From contig JBDIVL010000003.1 of assembly GCA_039794405.1 (NCBI GenBank), positions 96,843-128,842 on the forward strand: a DNA stretch of 32,000 nucleotides, given 5' to 3'. A program made the position numbers and the translations under genes. How positions within the stretch are numbered: position 1 is the first letter of the stretch; every line of letters starts with the position of its first letter. Below, piece by piece: positions 2,020 through 10,488 of this stretch. Source of the stretch: Candidatus Brocadiaceae bacterium. GTDB taxonomy: Bacteria > Planctomycetota > Brocadiia > Brocadiales > Brocadiaceae. The notes beneath the pieces are model-generated. The model was not told the DNA's origin. It saw nothing but the letters and a program-made list of their open reading frames with translations, and searched no databases.

Positions 2020-3288
2020 TCAATGTTCCAAAGGGTTGTACGGCTTACCGCCCTTCACGGGGGCTTCCGGCAGGGCTACCCTGCTCTTGCTCTTCACATC
2101 AAAAATTGTTAATGCACCCAAAGGATATTTACCTGTTGATACCATCCCGCGCAGGTTGTGATCATGCATGATCGTTATGCCCGCACCCAAATTGCAGGAT
2201 AAACATTTCCTTTGGCTTGCAAAGTGAGGAATCCTTACCAGCACATCAATCCTCTCGCCACTCGCAATGCAGAGGGTATCTTTTTCATAGCTGCTCTTGA
2301 GCTTTCTCCCATCCAGTGCAATTACTTCCATATGGTAACCGTGGGGATGGATTGCAAATACATGATCGGCGCCAATGGCCATAAAACGTAAAAGAACCGT
2401 TTCGTCTTCATAAGCTACGATTCTTGAACGTGGATCGTTTATAACGGAGCGCGGATGATAGAGGTTATCGGTGAACGTTCTTCCGTTAATTAAGAAATAA
2501 TCAGCCTTCCAATCCTGCAATCCATGAACAACACCGGCTTCCTGTAACTGTTCATTCGCCGTAGAAGACAACTCGCTAAAAAACAATGTATAGTCACGGT
2601 CATACTTGTATCCGTAAGCGGTCTTCGTTCTATCCTGATGGATAATAATAGGGAAATACATGCCAGCCAGAATATGATTAAAACTATCCACGTGGCAGTG
2701 TCCCATAAAAGAACCCTCATACTGAGGAGTCAATTCATACGCAAAAGACTTATGTTCTAAAACGGGATCAACGGGCAAAGAAGGCACACCGTCAACGGCC
2801 GGGGTTAAATCAAGACCGTGAAAATGGATCGTATGCGCCACATGGTTTATACCCGAATGTTCGTCTGCACAATGCATACCCGTATTATGCAAAACAATCC
2901 TGGCCTTTTCGCCAACAAAAAGGTGAATCGGATCACTAGGGACTTTTACAGGTTCTAAGAGTTGTTCTACGTGTTCCTTTGTGGTTACTTCTCCTACATT
3001 CTTAAAACTTCCTTTGGCATGAGTGTAACCCATTACCCACACTAATTCACCATTGGCCATTTCAACGTACCCGTCTGTGGTATAAAGATGGAATTCCCAC
3101 ACACCATCCTTGGTACGTTCTCCAAGAATATCCCCATTCGTTACATTGATTAGCTCTTGTTCTTCCTGACTCATATCCCAGCTTTCATTCTGTATTGGTT
3201 CTTCACCAAACACATTAAACATAACAGTATGCATACCAATGAAAAAAACAACCGTTGCCCATCTTATTTTCTCAAACATACACTTCAT
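2020..3288 (-). CDS. Secreted two-domain multicopper oxidase (type C arrangement, T1 copper in the N-terminal domain)
   Basis: It has a hydrophobic N-terminal signal-like segment. Copper motifs occur in the order HTIHFHG, GHCHVDSFNHILAGM, HPHG, MHDH. At 422 aa it fits two cupredoxin domains. Confidence 0.8.
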   Translation of the reverse strand: MKCMFEKIRWATVVFFIGMHTVMFNVFGEEPIQNESWDMSQEEQELINVTNGDILGERTKDGVWEFHLYTTDGYVEMANGELVWVMGYTHAKGSFKNVGEVTTKEHVEQLLEPVKVPSDPIHLFVGEKARIVLHNTGMHCADEHSGINHVAHTIHFHGLDLTPAVDGVPSLPVDPVLEHKSFAYELTPQYEGSFMGHCHVDSFNHILAGMYFPIIIHQDRTKTAYGYKYDRDYTLFFSELSSTANEQLQEAGVVHGLQDWKADYFLINGRTFTDNLYHPRSVINDPRSRIVAYEDETVLLRFMAIGADHVFAIHPHGYHMEVIALDGRKLKSSYEKDTLCIASGERIDVLVRIPHFASQRKCLSCNLGAGITIMHDHNLRGMVSTGKYPLGALTIFDVKSKSRVALPEAPVKGGKPYNPLEH

Positions 3289-3945: not shown

Positions 3946-4314
3946 CTACTGCTCTTCCCATAATCTCTCCAGAGTCAATTCCAGTTCTTCAATATTTATA
4001 GGCTTAGTCAGGTAATCATCTGCGCCGAGTTTCATCGCTTCCACAGCAGTTTTCACGGAACTACAGGCAGTAACAACTACGATTGCCACGGGTTTATCCC
4101 TTTTTCTTATTTCATGTATTAGGGTTAATCCCCCCATTCCTGGCAGATCCATATCTGTTACGATAATATCAAACTTTTCCTCCGACAGGAGATTTAAAGC
4201 CTCATGGGCGGACAGAACACCAGCCACAGAATAACCGTCACCTGCCAATATCTTTGTTAGTCCACTTAGTGCATTTTTATCATCATCTACCAGCAGCAAT
4301 CTTGGCTTTGTCAT
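3946..4314 (-). CDS. Stand-alone response-regulator receiver (CheY-like), paralogue of the receiver of the EBP at 7315..8661
   Basis: MTKPRLLLVDDDKNAL...DIIVTDMDLPGMGG...TA..S...A...GADDYLTKP carries the acidic pocket, phospho-Asp, Thr and Lys positions. 91 of 122 positions are identical to the EBP N-terminus by hand alignment. I chose ATG 4314 over the ORF-track 4323. Confidence 0.9.
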   Translation of the reverse strand: MTKPRLLLVDDDKNALSGLTKILAGDGYSVAGVLSAHEALNLLSEEKFDIIVTDMDLPGMGGLTLIHEIRKRDKPVAIVVVTACSSVKTAVEAMKLGADDYLTKPINIEELELTLERLWEEQ

Positions 4315-4341
4315 AAAAATCATTTCACAAGAAAAATCTGT

Positions 4342-4752
4342 TTATTGATGGCCTGCATTTTTCAGAAACATACCAAATTTTTTATCTTCGTTTGTTATAT
4401 GGTTTGTCAACCAGTCACACAACTGCCGCTGGGTTTTTATTACGAGATGAGAGGTAGCACCATCTGCTTCAAATTCTTTTTTTAAGGTAGAAAAATCCTT
4501 GATAAATTGAGTATGCTCTGTCTTCTGCTTTGAATAACCACCGTAGTTATATTTCGTCATCAAGGCCTCTTCCGCTCCGAAGTGTTTCACGACATAATCA
4601 GCTAAATACGTAAGTACCTTACCGACCTCATCCTTTCCTTTACCCTGTCCCATTGCAGTCAGGAGATCACCTACCCTGGTAAAAATTCCTTTATGCTGGG
4701 TATCGACCAAATCTATACCTATTGACAAATCATCACTCCATTTTGTTGCCAT
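4342..4752 (-). CDS. Bacteriohemerythrin (hemerythrin-like di-iron protein)
   Basis: W-SDDLSIGIDLVDTQHKGIF, HFGAEE, TEHTQF and NHITNEDKK supply the H, HxxxE, H and HxxxxD ligand pattern. The protein is 136 aa, and a good SD (AAGGAAGGA) lies upstream. Confidence 0.9.
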   Translation of the reverse strand: MATKWSDDLSIGIDLVDTQHKGIFTRVGDLLTAMGQGKGKDEVGKVLTYLADYVVKHFGAEEALMTKYNYGGYSKQKTEHTQFIKDFSTLKKEFEADGATSHLVIKTQRQLCDWLTNHITNEDKKFGMFLKNAGHQ

Positions 4753-4879: not shown

Positions 4880-4895
4880 AACAACTGTTGTACCA
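4880..4895 (-). promoter_or_regulatory. Candidate sigma54 (-24/-12) promoter for the hemerythrin-receiver operon
   Basis: The minus strand reads TGGTAC-AACAG-TTGTT. This keeps the GG-N10 spacing of TGGCAC-N5-TTGC but has T instead of C at -12. It is near-identical to the element at 7119-7134 and lies about 130 nt upstream of the start codon. Confidence 0.45.
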
Positions 4896-5009
4896 ATAAG
4901 CATCCAATCTCTCATAGAATTAATATATGTACTTGGAGTTTCATAGCTTAGACGAATGAAAATGAATTTTCCCATTTGATAAAACATTCACAGAAAGAAT
5001 TGAGAATGA

Positions 5010-5036
5010 TGTTTTTCGCGAAAATTTTGCAAAAAA
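5010..5036. promoter_or_regulatory. Candidate enhancer (UAS) box TGTTTTTC-GCG-AAAATTTTGC-AA-AAAA
   Basis: It matches 7248-7274 at 22 of 27 positions and contains the palindrome TTTTC-N2-GAAAA. It lies 115 nt beyond the -24 edge of the 4880-4895 element; the other copy lies 114 nt beyond its element. Confidence 0.4.
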
Positions 5037-5134
5037 CGGGGCGCAGGAGCAAAAAAAAATGAAAAAATTTCGGTTCTGTTTATCATCATTAACAAACACT
5101 TTTCATCGGTCTGAAGTACTGCTACTTTCGTGGC

Positions 5135-5378
5135 TTAACACATTCCGGCGTACTTTAGTAACACCAGTAGTTCAATGGGCTTATAAATAGCAAAATCAGG
5201 TATAACGTTACAGCCGGTGTTTGTCCGTCTTTTTAGCAGCTTGATAGCCTCTATACCACTGGCAGACAGGTAATCAGGTACTCTTTCTTACGAGGAATGA
5301 TCTTAAAAAGTCATATGTTTCAGGTTTATCATCTACTACCAGGATATGGCACTTGTGGACAGGTATTTTTTCAAGCAT
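5135..5378 (-). pseudogene. Decayed response-regulator receiver domain (frameshifted)
   Basis: The minus-strand translation gives MLEKIPVHKCHILVVDDKPETYDFLRSFLVRK, then after frame changes EYLITCLP / SGIEAIKLLKRR..IPDF...IELLVLLK. At least two frameshifts interrupt it and the region around the phospho-Asp is deleted. Confidence 0.5.
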
Positions 5379-5439
5379 GTGAGACGATGTTATGTCTGGT
5401 GATTGTCTCATTATTGGTATTTCCAGTCAAGCCTCATGA

Positions 5440-5921
5440 AGCCCAAAAAGTATTTTCGGTGGTGATAGTACAAAAGGTGATGGCAACAATTTGTTTAAAT
5501 TTCAAATTGGGGCCGGATCGAATATCTCAAGTGATTTGTTGAAGTTTGATCTGTTGAATGATTCAAATGTTTCATTGGGTACCAATAATACTGAATTTAG
5601 TATATAAAACTAAATTTGACGGCTAGTGCTACAAATGTTACTTCAATAGGCGGAATAAACGTATTGGGGAGTTTTGCTGCCGCAGGTTTTACAAACGCCC
5701 TTGACGGAACCGTAACCATTTGTTTTTTTGCTGATGTATCGAAAGCATTAAATTATATAGGTGTAACAATCAGCAGGTTAACCTATCAGGAAAATAGCCT
5801 TATGGTAAGCAAGGCGAGCATCGGATCCACACGGAGCCGGATTGAAGATGTACATATGGCAGAAGAACAACTTGTTGATGCAAAACTTCAGATACTGCAA
5901 CAGACCGCCGCAATAACGTAG
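5440..5921 (+). pseudogene. Flagellin remnant (central and C-terminal parts only, two frames)
   Basis: Frame 1 reads SIFGGDSTKGDGNNLFKFQIGAGSNISS... (flagellin FQIGA motif) and stops at 5605. Frame 3 from 5616 reads ...SRLTYQENSL...STRSRIEDVHMAEEQLVDAKLQILQQTAAIT, a flagellin C-terminal D1/D0 pattern. The N-terminal D0/D1 and the last ~15 aa are absent. Confidence 0.6.
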
Positions 5922-5929
5922 TGCGGCGG
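5905..5929. terminator. GC-rich hairpin CCGCCGCA-ataacgtag-TGCGGCGG between the convergent flagellin relic and ferredoxin gene
   Basis: 8-bp perfect GC-rich stem. The T-tails are poor on both strands, so function as a terminator is uncertain. Confidence 0.35.
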
Positions 5930-6048
5930 TATTCTCAAAACGAGTGATTGCTAAGCTTGAAAAGCCTCTCACATAGCAATATTCAGATGTTTCTTCTTTT
6001 AAAATCTCCTTATCTTCCGTTAAATTATCAACAAACAACAACCTTGGC

Positions 6049-6246
6049 CTATGTTTTGTATTTTATATACTGTGTAGGGCAGAGATATGCTGCCTGCTTG
6101 ATGCCTTCAGTAAAAGAAGCGATATTAGCACCTTGTTTAACCTGCGGACCTACGCCTGCTACAAATTCAAAAGCCCCTGATGCCTCTTCAATGCACATCG
6201 TACATTTAACACAATCACCTTCAAACCAAACAGTTTCTATCCTCAT
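6049..6246 (-). CDS. Small single-cluster ferredoxin
   Basis: MRIETVWFEGDCVKCTMCIEEASGAFEF...AAYLCPTQYIKYK has a CxxCxxC...CP cluster motif in about 65 aa. ATG 6246 with GAGGAGG upstream is preferred over the TTG at 6276. Confidence 0.7.
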   Translation of the reverse strand: MRIETVWFEGDCVKCTMCIEEASGAFEFVAGVGPQVKQGANIASFTEGIKQAAYLCPTQYIKYKT

Positions 6247-6279
6247 AATAATCAATTTCCTCCTCAATAAATTCAAAAA

Positions 6280-6326
6280 GTGAATAGTTAATAGAGGATA
6301 AAATACCCCCCCTACTAACTATTCAC
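6280..6326 (-). terminator. Intercistronic hairpin with T-tail between the protoglobin and ferredoxin genes (possible attenuator)
   Basis: On the minus strand GTGAATAGTTA ... TAACTATTCAC forms an 11-bp stem. The 25-nt loop contains a G7 run, and the stem is followed by TTTTTGAATTTATT and then the ferredoxin SD. Confidence 0.4.
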
Positions 6327-6347
6327 TAACTTATTCACTGTCTACCA

Positions 6348-7004
6348 TTACATCCAGGGAGCAAAATAATCAATGTGATAAACATCGATAATTAACCAGA
6401 AAAGTTTTGTCCATGCAGAGGTAATTCTCTGCAACTTTTCTGGCTCGTTCCTTAAAGTTTCGGCCAGAAAGTTAAATAAATACTGGTGGATGTAGCCCCA
6501 GAGCGCAATGTTTAGCCTTACTGGTATATACAGATCTTCAAAACCGAAGATCGGTACATGTACGGCGCCAACCCAGCGAACAAAATTCCAAAACTCTTCG
6601 TCCCATTTACATTCCAGGATCTTCAGGATAAACCTCCGCTGCCTCGCCCTCCGAATAGTGACATACTCTTTAGAAATCTTCCCAGTTTCATCCCTAAACC
6701 ATTTTGACAGCCAGGGGTCGTTGATAAGCTTTTCCCAATAAATATGATCAAGGATTGCCTCCAATTTCGGCGCTAAAATCTCTTTTGATTCCCTGATTGC
6801 TTCTGTGTCTTTATCTGTGAAGTTTACACATTGGGACATATACTCATAACGCTTCATAATATCGAGACTGGTATCCCGATAAAGATTCCATGATTTATTA
6901 AATTCGGGGATATCCAGAACAGAATTACGTTTACCAGCAGGAACCTTCTTCTCTGCTTCCATCGGAAACATCTTCATATAAGCATTCGCCATAACTGAAC
7001 TCAT
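6348..7004 (-). CDS. Single-domain protoglobin (globin-coupled-sensor-type globin without an output domain)
   Basis: It aligns by eye along its length with Methanosarcina protoglobin as I remember it: F-T-x-D-x-E-I...EILD..Y...P.L...F....G....KY....R.R...IL...D...IG..H. The putative proximal His sits in WVGAVHV. SD GGAG lies upstream. Confidence 0.8.
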   Translation of the reverse strand: MSSVMANAYMKMFPMEAEKKVPAGKRNSVLDIPEFNKSWNLYRDTSLDIMKRYEYMSQCVNFTDKDTEAIRESKEILAPKLEAILDHIYWEKLINDPWLSKWFRDETGKISKEYVTIRRARQRRFILKILECKWDEEFWNFVRWVGAVHVPIFGFEDLYIPVRLNIALWGYIHQYLFNFLAETLRNEPEKLQRITSAWTKLFWLIIDVYHIDYFAPWM

Positions 7005-7118
7005 CTACCATTTCTCCTCGTGAAAAAGTTGAAAATCCTGTACACTGCCATTTTGCTATTAATGTTTACCTTGCAAGGTTAGGAACGGCTTTATAACAGC
7101 CAAACCGCTTGTCATATA

Positions 7119-7134
7119 AACAACTAACGTACCA
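7119..7134 (-). promoter_or_regulatory. Candidate sigma54 (-24/-12) promoter for the protoglobin-ferredoxin operon
   Basis: The minus strand reads TGGTAC-GTTAG-TTGTT, the same as the 4880-4895 element outside the N5 spacer. It lies about 115 nt upstream of the start codon. Confidence 0.45.
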
Positions 7135-7247
7135 GAGACAGTCTCAACAATGTGCTGTTGGATGTAAGTACTTACAACAATGAAGTTTAAAAAATAAATT
7201 TGTTTTTCTTGCAGAAGAAACAGGACGAGGAGAAAAGGATTTTAAAA

Positions 7248-7274
7248 TGTTTTTCTGGAAAATTTTGCGGAAAA
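7248..7274. promoter_or_regulatory. Candidate enhancer (UAS) box TGTTTTTC-TGG-AAAATTTTGC-GG-AAAA
   Basis: Second copy of the 27-nt box at 5010-5036. It lies 114 nt beyond the -24 edge of 7119-7134 and 40 nt after the EBP stop codon. A partial TGTTTTTC half-site occurs at 7201-7208. Confidence 0.4.
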
Positions 7275-7314
7275 TATAGATGTGTTATGTAAAAGTGGTC
7301 GAAAATATTTCGTT

Positions 7315-8661
7315 TTAACCCCACTCCTTTACTTTATATTCAATTTTTCTGGTGGATATCCCTAACATTTTTGCAGCATCGCTTTTACTGCCGTGGGTCA
7401 TTTGAAGCGTTTTCAAAATAATCTCTTTTTCAGCTTCTTTTAATGAAGTTCCCATAGGAATCTTTATTGCCGGTATATCTCCTTTATATTGGACAATATT
7501 TCCCGGCAGGTGTTCTTCGGTAATCATAGTGCCTTTACAAAGCACAATTGCCCTTTCAATAATATTCTCCAGTTCCCTCACATTGCCTTGCCAGTGGTAG
7601 GTGCAAAGGGCTTCCATCGTCTGGGGAGTAAACCCATGAATTTCCTTCTTATATTTCTTTGCATATTTCACGACAAAAAAATGAGAAAGGACGGGGATAT
7701 CCTCCTTCCTTTCCCTTAACGGTGGTAAATGGATAGTAATAACATTTAATCGATAAAATAAATCTTCCCGAAATCTTCCTTCTGCAACTTCTTTCTCAAG
7801 GTTTCGGTTGGTTGCTGCAATCAGCCGGACATCTACTTTTATGGTCTTTTCCCCGCCAACACGTTCGAACTCACCTTTCTCCAAAATCCGGAGCAGTTTG
7901 ACCTGCACCTTGAGGCTCATCTCACCCACTTCATCCAAAAAAATGGTACCGCCATCGGCTAATTCGAACCGTCCTTTTCGTGATTGAATTGCACCGGTAA
8001 AGGCACCCTTTTCATGGCCAAAGAGTTCACTCTCCAGCACACCTTCTGATAAGGCAGCGCAATGTAAAGCGATAAAAGGCATGCATGCCCTGTCACTTCG
8101 ATAATGGAGTGCGTTAGCAACCAGCTCTTTTCCAGTTCCTGTTTCCCCCAGGATTAAGATTGAAGCCGTACTGGGGGCTACATCCTCTATCATTTTAAAT
8201 ATACCATGCATCTGTGGGGTACCACCGACAAGTTCTGAAAATTTATACTTATCCTTCAGTTTCTCCTTGAGTAATTGGTTTTGAACCACCAACTGTTGTT
8301 TTTCCCACAATTTTTCCAGCACCAGCTCTAATTCTTCAATATCCACCGGTTTCGTTAAGTAATCATCCGCTCCGCATTTAATGGCATCCACGGCTGTTTT
8401 AATGGAACTGTAGGCCGTAATCAATACAATCGCTAAAGAGCCATCCTTTTTTTTCGCTTCATGGATCAGGTTTAATCCCCCCATCCCCGGCAATTTCATA
8501 TCTGTTATGATGATGTCAAATTTCTTCTTAGATAAGAGATTCAATGCTTCATAACCAGAGGGGACGCCGGAAACGGCATATCCATCACTTGCCAGTATTT
8601 TTACTAATCCATCAAGTGCATTTTTATCGTCGTCAACGAGTAATAATCTTGGTTTCGTCAT
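7315..8661 (-). CDS. Sigma54-dependent response regulator (NtrC-family enhancer-binding protein: REC + AAA+ + HTH)
   Basis: It has a REC domain, Walker A GETGTGKE, the sigma54-contact loop EKGAFTGA, a Walker B/arginine-finger region and a C-terminal Fis-type HTH (AAKMLGISTRKIEYKVKEWG). Confidence 0.95.
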   Translation of the reverse strand: MTKPRLLLVDDDKNALDGLVKILASDGYAVSGVPSGYEALNLLSKKKFDIIITDMKLPGMGGLNLIHEAKKKDGSLAIVLITAYSSIKTAVDAIKCGADDYLTKPVDIEELELVLEKLWEKQQLVVQNQLLKEKLKDKYKFSELVGGTPQMHGIFKMIEDVAPSTASILILGETGTGKELVANALHYRSDRACMPFIALHCAALSEGVLESELFGHEKGAFTGAIQSRKGRFELADGGTIFLDEVGEMSLKVQVKLLRILEKGEFERVGGEKTIKVDVRLIAATNRNLEKEVAEGRFREDLFYRLNVITIHLPPLRERKEDIPVLSHFFVVKYAKKYKKEIHGFTPQTMEALCTYHWQGNVRELENIIERAIVLCKGTMITEEHLPGNIVQYKGDIPAIKIPMGTSLKEAEKEIILKTLQMTHGSKSDAAKMLGISTRKIEYKVKEWG

Positions 8662-9085: not shown

Positions 9086-10180
9086 TTAGCGTACCGGTAT
9101 TGCAACAACAAATTTAGTTCCCTGGGATGATGGTTCCAGCCTTATTGTGCCTCCATGGGCATGGATAATATTTTGAGCAAAGGAAAGTCCTATTCCGGTA
9201 CCTCCATCCTTGGTGGTATAAAACAAATTGAATATCTTATCTTTAATCTCATCTGGAATTCCTATCCCTGTATCCTGGCAGGAGATGAATATTTCATACT
9301 CGTTCCGTTCCGTACGAACATATAACTTCCCCCCATCCGGCATTGCCTCAATACCGTTAATAAAAATATTTAAAATTGCTTGCTTTATCTTATCCTTGTC
9401 TACGCTTATTTTGGGTAGTTCACACGCCGTGTCTAATTCTACCTGAATACCATGTAATTGTGCCTGAGGTATGATCAATGAGACAACTTCCTTGAGTATT
9501 TCCCTTACATCAATACGGCTTTTGTTAAGTTCTCCTGTCCTGGAAAAGTGCAGACATTCTCCGACAAATTCACTTAAACGGTTAAGTTCTTTACGGACTA
9601 TGAATGCGATCTCAAGTAATCCTTCTTTTGATTTATCGCTTATTTTGTATATTTTCTGTATTTCACGCTCTAACACTAGCATCTGGAGGTTCATGGCATT
9701 CAATGGATTTTTAATCTCATGTGCCAGTTCGGCGGCAAATGAACCCAACGTAGATAAGGTTTTAGACCTAAGGACTTCGTCTGAAAATCTTTTTCTTTCC
9801 GTTATATTCTCTAAAATAGAGATAATATGGGTTACCTTTCCTTCTGTGTCTTTGATAGCCGACACACTTGCTTCTACCCACAATACACTTCCATCACCCC
9901 GTTTAATCAGGAGTTCCCTCGAACCCTGAGAAAATTTTCCCTGAAATACGTCCATGCCAGGGCAAAATTTTTCCGTTAAACACATACCGGTAGAAGTATG
10001 GCATTGGAAGATCTCACCGCAGTCTTTACCGATAATCTTCTCTCTTGGCCATTTTGTAATCTCCTCACATGCCCGATTAAAAAACAGCACATTCCTGTTA
10101 CTATCCTGGATCATAATCCCTTTGCTTGCACAGTCCAGGGCCTGGTGAAACATTTGAATTATTGTATCAATATTTCTCAT
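9086..10180 (-). CDS. Cytoplasmic PAS-domain sensor histidine kinase (PAS + HisKA + HATPase_c)
   Basis: No TM segment is present. The PAS core carries four Cys (GKDCGEIFQCHTSTGMCLTEKFCPG). It has H-box AHEIKNPLNAM, N-box ILNIFINGIEAM, G1 DTGIGI and G2 GGTGIGL. I chose ATG 10180; the ORF track opens at TTG 10204. Confidence 0.9.
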   Translation of the reverse strand: MRNIDTIIQMFHQALDCASKGIMIQDSNRNVLFFNRACEEITKWPREKIIGKDCGEIFQCHTSTGMCLTEKFCPGMDVFQGKFSQGSRELLIKRGDGSVLWVEASVSAIKDTEGKVTHIISILENITERKRFSDEVLRSKTLSTLGSFAAELAHEIKNPLNAMNLQMLVLEREIQKIYKISDKSKEGLLEIAFIVRKELNRLSEFVGECLHFSRTGELNKSRIDVREILKEVVSLIIPQAQLHGIQVELDTACELPKISVDKDKIKQAILNIFINGIEAMPDGGKLYVRTERNEYEIFISCQDTGIGIPDEIKDKIFNLFYTTKDGGTGIGLSFAQNIIHAHGGTIRLEPSSQGTKFVVAIPVR

Positions 10181-10488
10181 GGTTGTTTTAGCTAAGATTA
10201 TCAAAATTTCAATAAAAGTAAATGCTTTTTATGATTTTACCAAAAGCAATTAATTTGATTTGCTGTTTTTGTCTTTCAATTTTGATTTTTACCTCCAATA
10301 CTATAACCAGTACGAGCCGGAAGAGCCGAAATCCGAGTTGTATGGGAAAAAAGTTTTTACTGTAAATGATATTCAGCCATTCAACCCACTATTTTTGCTA
10401 AAAATATCGAATTCTTTTGGAAAGATATTAGCGTGAAAGCAACTTCATTGCGGGGTTATTTATGGAACGGGATTAGCTAATAAAACGC

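Follow-up and report, generated by a model that had tools for sequence, protein, structure and literature searches.

Probable promoters with distant activator sites

Two described kinds of bacterial promoter come closest to the sequences considered here: the glnAp2-type promoter of enteric bacteria, controlled by NtrC (NRI), and the nif promoters that depend on NifA. This article deals with two sequences, P1 and P2, in a window of 32,000 nucleotides (contig C3:96843-128842) from the genome of an anammox bacterium of the Brocadiaceae (3.9 Mb, 39.8% G+C; labelled G000 in coordinates below). The window means this whole stretch, and positions given without a contig name are counted from its first nucleotide. 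P1 and P2 are probably RpoN-dependent promoters activated at a distance by an NtrC-type enhancer-binding protein (EBP) encoded next to them.

At glnAp2, a two-component kinase works with an activator composed of a receiver (REC), an AAA+ and a helix-turn-helix (HTH) domain, and two dyad-symmetric activator sites lie on the same face of the DNA, more than 100 bp upstream of a GG-N10-(G)C element at −24/−12; all of these features have counterparts at P1 and P2. The activator of glnAp2 acts by oligomerization and DNA looping, and the same mode of action is proposed here. The glnAp2 site reads TGCACC-N5-GGTGCA, whereas that of P1 and P2 is CGMAAAWWTTTTCG; the glnAp2 sites are about 32 bp apart, whereas those described here are separated by 41–43 bp and lie further upstream (at about −155 and −198). 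The −24/−12 element is TGGCAC-N5-TTGC at glnAp2 and TGGTAC-N5-TTGT here, and glnAp2 serves nitrogen-assimilation genes, whereas the genes at issue here encode haem and di-iron proteins, a multicopper oxidase (MCO) and an Mla transporter.

The NifA-dependent promoters resemble P1 and P2 in having an enhancer at about −100 to −200, for which both the distance to the promoter and the side of the helix are important, and in the repetition of one architecture at several operons of a regulon. They carry an upstream activator site (UAS) of the form TGT-N10-ACA together with a site for integration host factor (IHF), whereas neither TGT-N10-ACA nor a canonical IHF site is found here. In addition, NifA is a GAF-domain activator, whereas the putative activator of P1 and P2 is a phosphorylated response regulator.

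For sigma-54 promoters in general, the 1999 compilation by Barrios, Valderrama and Morett is said to give the consensus mrNrYTGGCACG-N4-TTGCWNNw. The GG and TTG of this consensus are kept at exactly this spacing at P1 and P2, and the HTH and RpoN box of the RpoN protein are the usual ones. In the window genome, however, the −24 element is mostly TGGTAT or TGGCAT, and the base after TTG is A, T or C about equally often.

Architecture of P1 and P2

The elements of the two promoters are listed below, from −24/−12 element to distal site.

7119..7134, minus strand: −24/−12 element of P1, TGGTACgttagTTGTT; TGGYAY-N5-TTG(T/C)T is kept upstream of the protoglobin gene at 25 distinct loci
7162..7173, minus strand: mid-block of P1, AAGTACTTACAT; family consensus a.tT-a..a, not a canonical IHF site
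7257..7269, minus strand: UAS2 of P1, CGCAAAATTTTCC; core of the box at 7248-7274, centre at about −155, 135 nt upstream of TGG
7300..7312, minus strand: UAS1 of P1, CGAAATATTTTCG; near-palindrome beginning 3 nt past the EBP stop codon, centre at about −198
4880..4895, minus strand: −24/−12 element of P2, TGGTACaacagTTGTT; the same 16-mer is present in a genome of the same genus (G001), inside a region of 74% identity
4923..4934, minus strand: mid-block of P2, AAGTACATATAT; aligns with the mid-block of P1
5019..5031, minus strand: UAS2 of P2, TGCAAAATTTTCG; core of the box at 5010-5036, identical in G001
5060..5072, minus strand: UAS1 of P2, CGAAATTTTTTCA; position weight matrix (PWM) score 20.4, conserved in G001

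A first-pass annotation had placed two TGGTAC-N5-TTGTT elements in this part of the window, and both are there, reading cttatTGGTACaacagTTGTTaat (4895..4880) and tctcTGGTACgttagTTGTTtat (7134..7119) on the minus strand. The two 27-nt upstream boxes that it described were also correctly located (plus strand TGTTTTTCGCGAAAATTTTGCAAAAAA at 5010-5036 and TGTTTTTCTGGAAAATTTTGCGGAAAA at 7248-7274), as were their offsets of 115 nt (5010-4895) and 114 nt (7248-7134) from the promoter edge. The identity of the boxes is, however, 23/27 rather than the 22/27 reported: 22 is the count of fixed template positions, and one 'N' position matches too. The 21-nt core of the box, TGTTTTTCNNNAAAATTTTGC, has zero-mismatch matches in the 3.9-Mb genome only at the P1 and P2 boxes. 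A copy of this core with two mismatches (TGTTTAACGGAAAAATTTTGC, minus strand) was observed at 9962-9982, within the coding region of a histidine kinase, and is outside the 45 highest PWM scores.

The box proved to be the second of two near-palindromes, with a functional core of 13 nt rather than the entire 27 nt. At P1, the two near-palindromes CGAAATATTTTCG and CGCAAAATTTTCC are dyad-symmetric sites at least 100 bp upstream of the promoter. UAS1 and UAS2 are 41–43 bp apart from start to start in all measured loci (centre to centre, 43 bp at P1 and 41 bp at P2); this spacing is about four helical turns, placing both sites on one face of the DNA, as in the phasing typical of the NtrC family. 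The distance from the start of UAS1 to TGG is 173–179 nt in every measured locus, the value for P2 being 178 nt when counted from the PWM start, one base before CG. The 5-nt gap between TGGTAC and TTGT is present at both promoters, and start sites are predicted near 7108 (P1) and 4869 (P2), taking the T of TTGT as −12. The DNA between promoter and box had been described as not obviously homologous, but it does share short blocks, such as AAGTACTTACAT (7173-7162) and AAGTACATATAT (4934-4923).

Conservation and genome-wide specificity

Upstream regions of the protoglobin gene were aligned from relatives, with related loci in Candidatus Loosdrechtia aerotolerans, Ca. Jettenia ecosi, Ca. Brocadia and Ca. 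Kuenenia; the alignment comprises 27 promoters. Columns conserved in at least 90% of them are confined to CGAAAT..TTTC, CGCAAA..TTTC, the mid-block a.tT-a..a and TGG.A.-N5-TTG.T, and the DNA between these blocks diverges freely. An A-rich block was noted as well. The conserved columns of UAS1 read CGAAATttTTTC, and UAS2 is conserved as CGCAAA.tTTTC. UAS1, UAS2, the mid-block and TGGYAY-N5-(T/G)TG(T/C)T are all kept in 25 distinct protoglobin loci (Brocadia, Jettenia, Loosdrechtia, Kuenenia and further genera), where the spacing within the −24/−12 element is invariant; the architecture is kept at orthologous loci of at least seven Brocadiaceae genera. In these 25 orthologs, the −24 element is TGGCAT (11), TGGTAT (9), TGGCAC (4) or TGGTAC (1), and the −12 element is TTGT (22), TTGC (2, Kuenenia-type) or GTGC (1). 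P2 is kept in G001, with every block identical amid the 74% regional identity.

In G001, an insertion of about 180 nt was observed at the protoglobin promoter, between the EBP stop codon and UAS1 (L070:6510-6690). Two inverted repeats able to form hairpins (GGTTCAATC...GATTGAACC, twice) lie within it; neither the promoter nor its two sites UAS1 and UAS2 are disturbed, and the insertion looks like a small mobile or repeat element.

The specificity of the architecture was examined with a composite pattern consisting of the promoter, a gap of 118–127 nt and the box core GAAAAWTTTKC, with an allowed span of 145–154 nt. This pattern has 4 matches in the window genome and 31 in 41 genomes of the family, with spans of 147–152 nt; the reversed control pattern has none in any of the 41. 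A separate scan of the window genome, with the site PWM and a promoter-like motif 100–200 nt downstream, recovered the same four composite sites with identical geometry:

window, minus strand: composite site P1, preceding the protoglobin and ferredoxin genes
window, minus strand: composite site P2, preceding the hemerythrin and receiver genes
C27:16897-17047, minus strand: composite site with TGGTATaatacTTGTT, start site predicted at about 16885, preceding an mlaE/mlaF/mlaD-type ABC transporter operon
C6:43444-43592, plus strand: composite site with TGGCACtccagTTGTT, start site predicted at about 43604, preceding genes for a methyl-accepting chemotaxis protein and a PAS/GAF signalling protein

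The motif pair is thus not scattered over the window genome but occurs in fixed geometry at four intergenic sites. The strict expression TGGYAC-N5-TTGY, used by itself, has 40 matches in the whole genome and is too noisy alone. From these sequences we infer that the P1, P2, mla and chemoreceptor promoters form a four-promoter regulon. The mla copy is present again in G001, and another genus, g11, has it in three genomes. There are also genomes in which the composite promoter, placed after the EBP stop codon, has the receiver and MCO genes directly downstream. The leader between promoter and mlaE in the genus of the window genome (G000:C27:16440-16900; L114:3940-4400) is about 458 nt long, and in g11 this space is filled by ruvC.

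Origin of the resemblance between P1 and P2

The resemblance between the two promoters might be functionless, either the relic of a decaying segmental duplication or a product of chance in AT-rich DNA. Duplication has occurred at this locus, as a stand-alone receiver is 75% identical to the receiver of the EBP; the two units are separated by about 1 kb of gene relics. However, the paralogous promoters of one genome are only 57–66% identical (global), as compared with 53 ± 2.3% for shuffles and 72–75% for orthologous promoters, P1 and P2 sharing 60%. The identity of paralogs is near the shuffle level, and the similarity is therefore confined to functional blocks, which are kept across genera at fixed spacing. 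Contiguous identity well above background along the whole unit, the mark of a recent duplication, was not found. The possibility that P2 is a recent copy of P1 was considered and is unsupported, since the mla and chemoreceptor promoters are at least as close to P2 as P1 is. Chance also fails to account for 31 real matches against none for the reversed control. Conservation, control and identity results have already largely refuted a functionless origin, which we regard as extremely improbable. They support selection on function, rather than recent duplication, as the probable explanation of the resemblance, in line with the first-pass annotation.

The base at position −12

At both P1 and P2 the canonical GC doublet is absent, and T occupies position −12. 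This base had been put forward as a possible lineage-specific variant, and the candidate sigma-54 promoters of the window genome agree with that suggestion. In 2110 upstream intergenic regions, taken from crude gene calls based on open reading frames (ORFs) and searched with a pattern that fixes Y at two positions, TGGYAY-N5-TTGN in the sense orientation was found with A (17), T (16), C (13) or G (3) as its last base, as compared with 1.2–2.4 in shuffles. Enrichment was seen only at the 5-nt spacer, spacers of 3, 4, 6 or 7 nt giving 0–6 matches, and TGGTAT was the commonest −24 element among the candidates. The consensus for candidate sigma-54 promoters of the lineage is TGGYAY-N5-TTG(A/T/C), in which C is not strictly kept. 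T at −12 thus appears to be normal for the lineage, with C not preferred, which points to a lineage-wide relaxation.

The genes downstream of these candidates include some of the kinds usually under sigma-54 control: flagellar genes (TTGC), Hsp20, sugar epimerases, glycosyltransferases and response regulators. The Hsp20 promoter has TTGA in three genomes of two genera and TTGC in Brocadia. A rubrerythrin candidate has a match in Brocadia only, at a different distance from the gene (−52 vs −132), and the candidate promoter of a membrane-protein gene on contig C37 is not conserved; with candidates as poorly conserved as these, part of the genome-wide list is probably noise.

Two further observations concern candidates of this kind. 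The Hsp20 gene (G000:C5:86956 and 87177; L149) has tandem sigma-54-like elements, TGGCACcacacTTGC at −327 and TGGTACaataaTTGA at −106, and the proximal element is conserved in G001 and in the Loosdrechtia-like genome G004. At five other places (G000:C7:8331, C36:16089, C13:62147, C53:28447 and C6:72527), near-identical extended sequences, (T)TCATGG(C/T)ATATTTTTTG(A/T)TA, lie upstream of genes. These ATATTTTTTG-type sequences may represent a small repeat or, alternatively, a family of related promoters of the sigma-54 type that have TTGA at −12.

The non-canonical base might also mean that TGGTAC-N5-TTGTT is not used by sigma-54 at all, T at −12 being disabling; the genes would then have promoters of the sigma-70 or another type, and another regulator would use the conserved blocks. 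The UAS region is in fact overlapped, at 7302-7273, by a single weak match (9/12) of the sigma-70 type. However, between 3800 and 7500, sigma-70-like matches and terminators are no commoner than chance predicts (15 sigma-70-like matches found vs 11.2 ± 3.4), and the GG-N10-TG spacing is exact and conserved in the 25 loci. The Kuenenia orthologs, moreover, have the canonical TGGCAC-N5-TTGCT in the same place, and genome-wide enrichment is restricted to a spacer of 5 nt, A, T and C being found equally often at −12. We consider this explanation most unlikely and retain sigma-54 as the probable sigma factor of P1 and P2.

The sigma-54 machinery and the presumed activator

The genome has a single rpoN gene, encoding a protein of 479 amino acids (aa) that aligns over its full length with E. 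coli sigma-54 chains (E=2e-76). This protein is canonical, with the HTH ...STVSR...KY and the RpoN box ARRTVTKYR. There are about 21 EBP genes in the genome, one of which is immediately upstream of P1 and is preceded by a kinase gene:

7315..8661, minus strand: NtrC-type EBP; Pfam Response_reg, Sigma54_activat (E=7e-72) and HTH_8 (Fis-type)
9086..10204, minus strand: soluble PAS histidine kinase; Pfam PAS_9, HisKA and HATPase_c; syntenic with the EBP in Brocadia, Jettenia and Loosdrechtia loci

The EBP combines REC, the AAA+ sigma-54 interaction domain and HTH, and the GAFTGA loop is seen in its translation, so that an activator of the kind with which sigma-54 promoters are associated is available in the adjacent gene. 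Orthologs of this EBP (77–93% identity) occur in most Brocadiaceae genera. It is proposed that the EBP binds UAS1 and UAS2 through its C-terminal HTH; the PAS kinase is presumed to be the sensor of the system.

The near-palindromes might instead be bound by another protein, such as a repressor, a nucleoid protein of the Fis/HU kind or one of the other EBPs, at what would still be real sigma-54 promoters. Two copies, those at the mla and chemoreceptor loci, lie at a great distance from the EBP gene, and the Kuenenia protoglobin promoter retains both sites although the EBP gene is located elsewhere in that genome; the sites are AT-rich, similar single sites occur elsewhere in the genome, and three genes of the HU/IHF family are present. 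Against this, UAS1 lies within a few bases of the EBP stop codon in most Brocadiaceae, and the genome has no second EBP with a similar C-terminal HTH (best 53% over 38 aa). Tandem dyads four helical turns apart at −150 to −200 are the classic layout of the NtrC family. Finally, genera g8 and g9 (84–99% complete, two genomes for each) yielded neither an EBP ortholog nor a protoglobin gene nor a composite promoter, the three being missing together. Another binding protein is accordingly judged unlikely, and the adjacent EBP is kept as the presumed activator.

The fixed geometry, the conservation at orthologous loci and the absence of a strict C at −12 in the lineage all favour the first-pass reading of P1 and P2 as sigma-54-type −24/−12 promoters with a conserved upstream box. 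For the use of sigma-54, the binding protein, the looping and the signal sensed, we infer the following sequence of events. The adjacent PAS kinase would control the EBP, dimers of which would bind the two near-palindromes (CGMAAAWWTTTTCG) centred near −198 and −155, on the same face of the DNA. Once phosphorylated, the EBP would form an oligomer and loop over about 130 bp, and its GAFTGA loop, with ATP hydrolysis, would open the closed complex of sigma-54 holoenzyme at TGGTAC-N5-TTGTT. P1 would drive the protoglobin and ferredoxin genes, and P2 the hemerythrin and stand-alone receiver genes and probably the MCO gene too; the two further promoters of the same geometry would drive the mlaE-type ABC transporter operon and the chemoreceptor locus.

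Several points weigh against this scheme. The missing C at −12 weakens the strict membership of P1 and P2 among sigma-54 promoters; in the Barrios et al. 1999 compilation, C at this position, where T stands here, is reportedly among the best-conserved of all. The genome-wide list of candidates rests on crude ORF calls and on a pattern in which Y is fixed. The assignment of the sites to the EBP is drawn from adjacency and from the lack of a similar HTH elsewhere in the genome. Neither a canonical IHF site nor helical phasing of A-tracts was found that might ease so short a loop: between enhancer and promoter, the mean best mismatch to the IHF site WATCAANNNNTTR was 1.63, vs 1.78 ± 0.11 in shuffles, with no fixed position, and A-tract curvature phased at 10–11 bp gave no signal (z = 0.1 to 1.4). 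Lastly, the mla and chemoreceptor genes are less certain as targets because their leaders are long (458 nt and 844 nt).

A bolder proposal is that the −12 element is truly relaxed (TTGH rather than TTGC) for sigma-54 in the Brocadiaceae, and that the PAS-kinase/EBP pair runs an undescribed conserved stress regulon, probably responsive to O2, nitric oxide (NO) or redox state, which would couple protoglobin, ferredoxin, hemerythrin, MCO, a decoy receiver and the Mla transporter of outer-membrane lipids through a fixed-distance enhancer without IHF. Taken as a whole, this proposal is tentative, and we hold it to be possible rather than probable.

Gene order and history of the locus

The remaining genes of the locus are on the same strand as the EBP gene:

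6348..7004, minus strand: protoglobin-like gene, first gene of the P1 operon; Pfam Protoglobin (E=1e-24)
6049..6276, minus strand: small ferredoxin-like gene, second gene of the P1 operon; weak Fer4_13 match below the curated cut-off, syntenic after the protoglobin gene (pgb) in loci of the family
4342..4752, minus strand: hemerythrin gene, first gene 3' of P2; Pfam Hemerythrin
3946..4323, minus strand: stand-alone receiver domain; Pfam Response_reg, paralog of the EBP receiver
2020..3288, minus strand: MCO; Pfam Cu-oxidase domains, synteny in Brocadia and Jettenia loci

Read along the minus strand, the order is kinase, EBP, P1, protoglobin, ferredoxin, about 1 kb of gene relics, P2, hemerythrin, receiver and MCO. 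Brocadia, Jettenia and Loosdrechtia have the ancestral order: kinase, EBP, promoter, protoglobin, ferredoxin, receiver and oxidase. By this comparison, the receiver, which is 74.6% identical to residues 1–122 of the EBP, appears to belong ancestrally to a pgb-fdx-REC-MCO operon (fdx, ferredoxin gene), with the MCO gene as the last syntenic gene, and the genus of the window genome has acquired additional DNA between the ferredoxin gene and the receiver gene.

The inserted DNA differs between the two genomes of this genus. G001 has an intact gene for a PAS-GAF-PAS-GGDEF-EAL protein of 901 aa between the ferredoxin gene and P2 (L070:8535-11240), and the matching position of the window (5040-6040) is occupied by the 1 kb of relics, including a truncated receiver and a C-terminal flagellin fragment on the plus strand. 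A paralog of the 901-aa signalling protein of G001 was found downstream of the composite promoter on C6.

P2 was also considered as the ancestral promoter of the hemerythrin gene, and this was ruled out: 12 hemerythrin orthologs from other genera (63–69% identical) have no TGGYAY-N5-KTGY within 450 nt upstream. These orthologs in other genera are at different genome locations. In genus g4, the gene immediately after that for protoglobin encodes a distant hemerythrin (36% identical; G015:C1:226036-227244); hemerythrin has therefore been recruited to the protoglobin operon more than once. The protoglobin-like protein itself (window 6348-7004; loci L070-L113) is an exceptionally well-conserved single-domain protein, with 68–96% identity across anammox families, including Scalindua and small-genome Brocadiales; outside the Brocadiaceae, its gene is found without the kinase/EBP neighbourhood and without the composite promoter.

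Significance

The architecture described here is ordinary, being that of a textbook NtrC-type promoter, whereas the regulon and the relaxed −12 element are undescribed. The system is modestly unusual in three respects: the non-C base at −12 throughout the lineage, the tightly fixed distance between enhancer and promoter without IHF, and the undescribed but conserved set of targets in anammox bacteria. No paper on sigma-54 promoters or on this regulon in anammox bacteria was found in the literature, nor was any start-site study of these organisms.

To our knowledge, anammox bacteria have neither a genetic system nor pure cultures, and very little is known about the regulation of their transcription. 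The advance made here is at the level of annotation, with no new mechanism. For the sigma-54 field, it points to a lineage that has a canonical RpoN and seems to do without an obligatory C at −12. For the organisms themselves, the locus provides a concrete candidate circuit with a sensor kinase and an activator, a binding motif of 13 nt, promoters of fixed geometry and four operons as targets. The products of the target genes (protoglobin, hemerythrin, MCO and the Mla transporter) point to oxygen, NO or envelope stress, and the circuit may thus be relevant to the oxygen sensitivity of anammox reactors.

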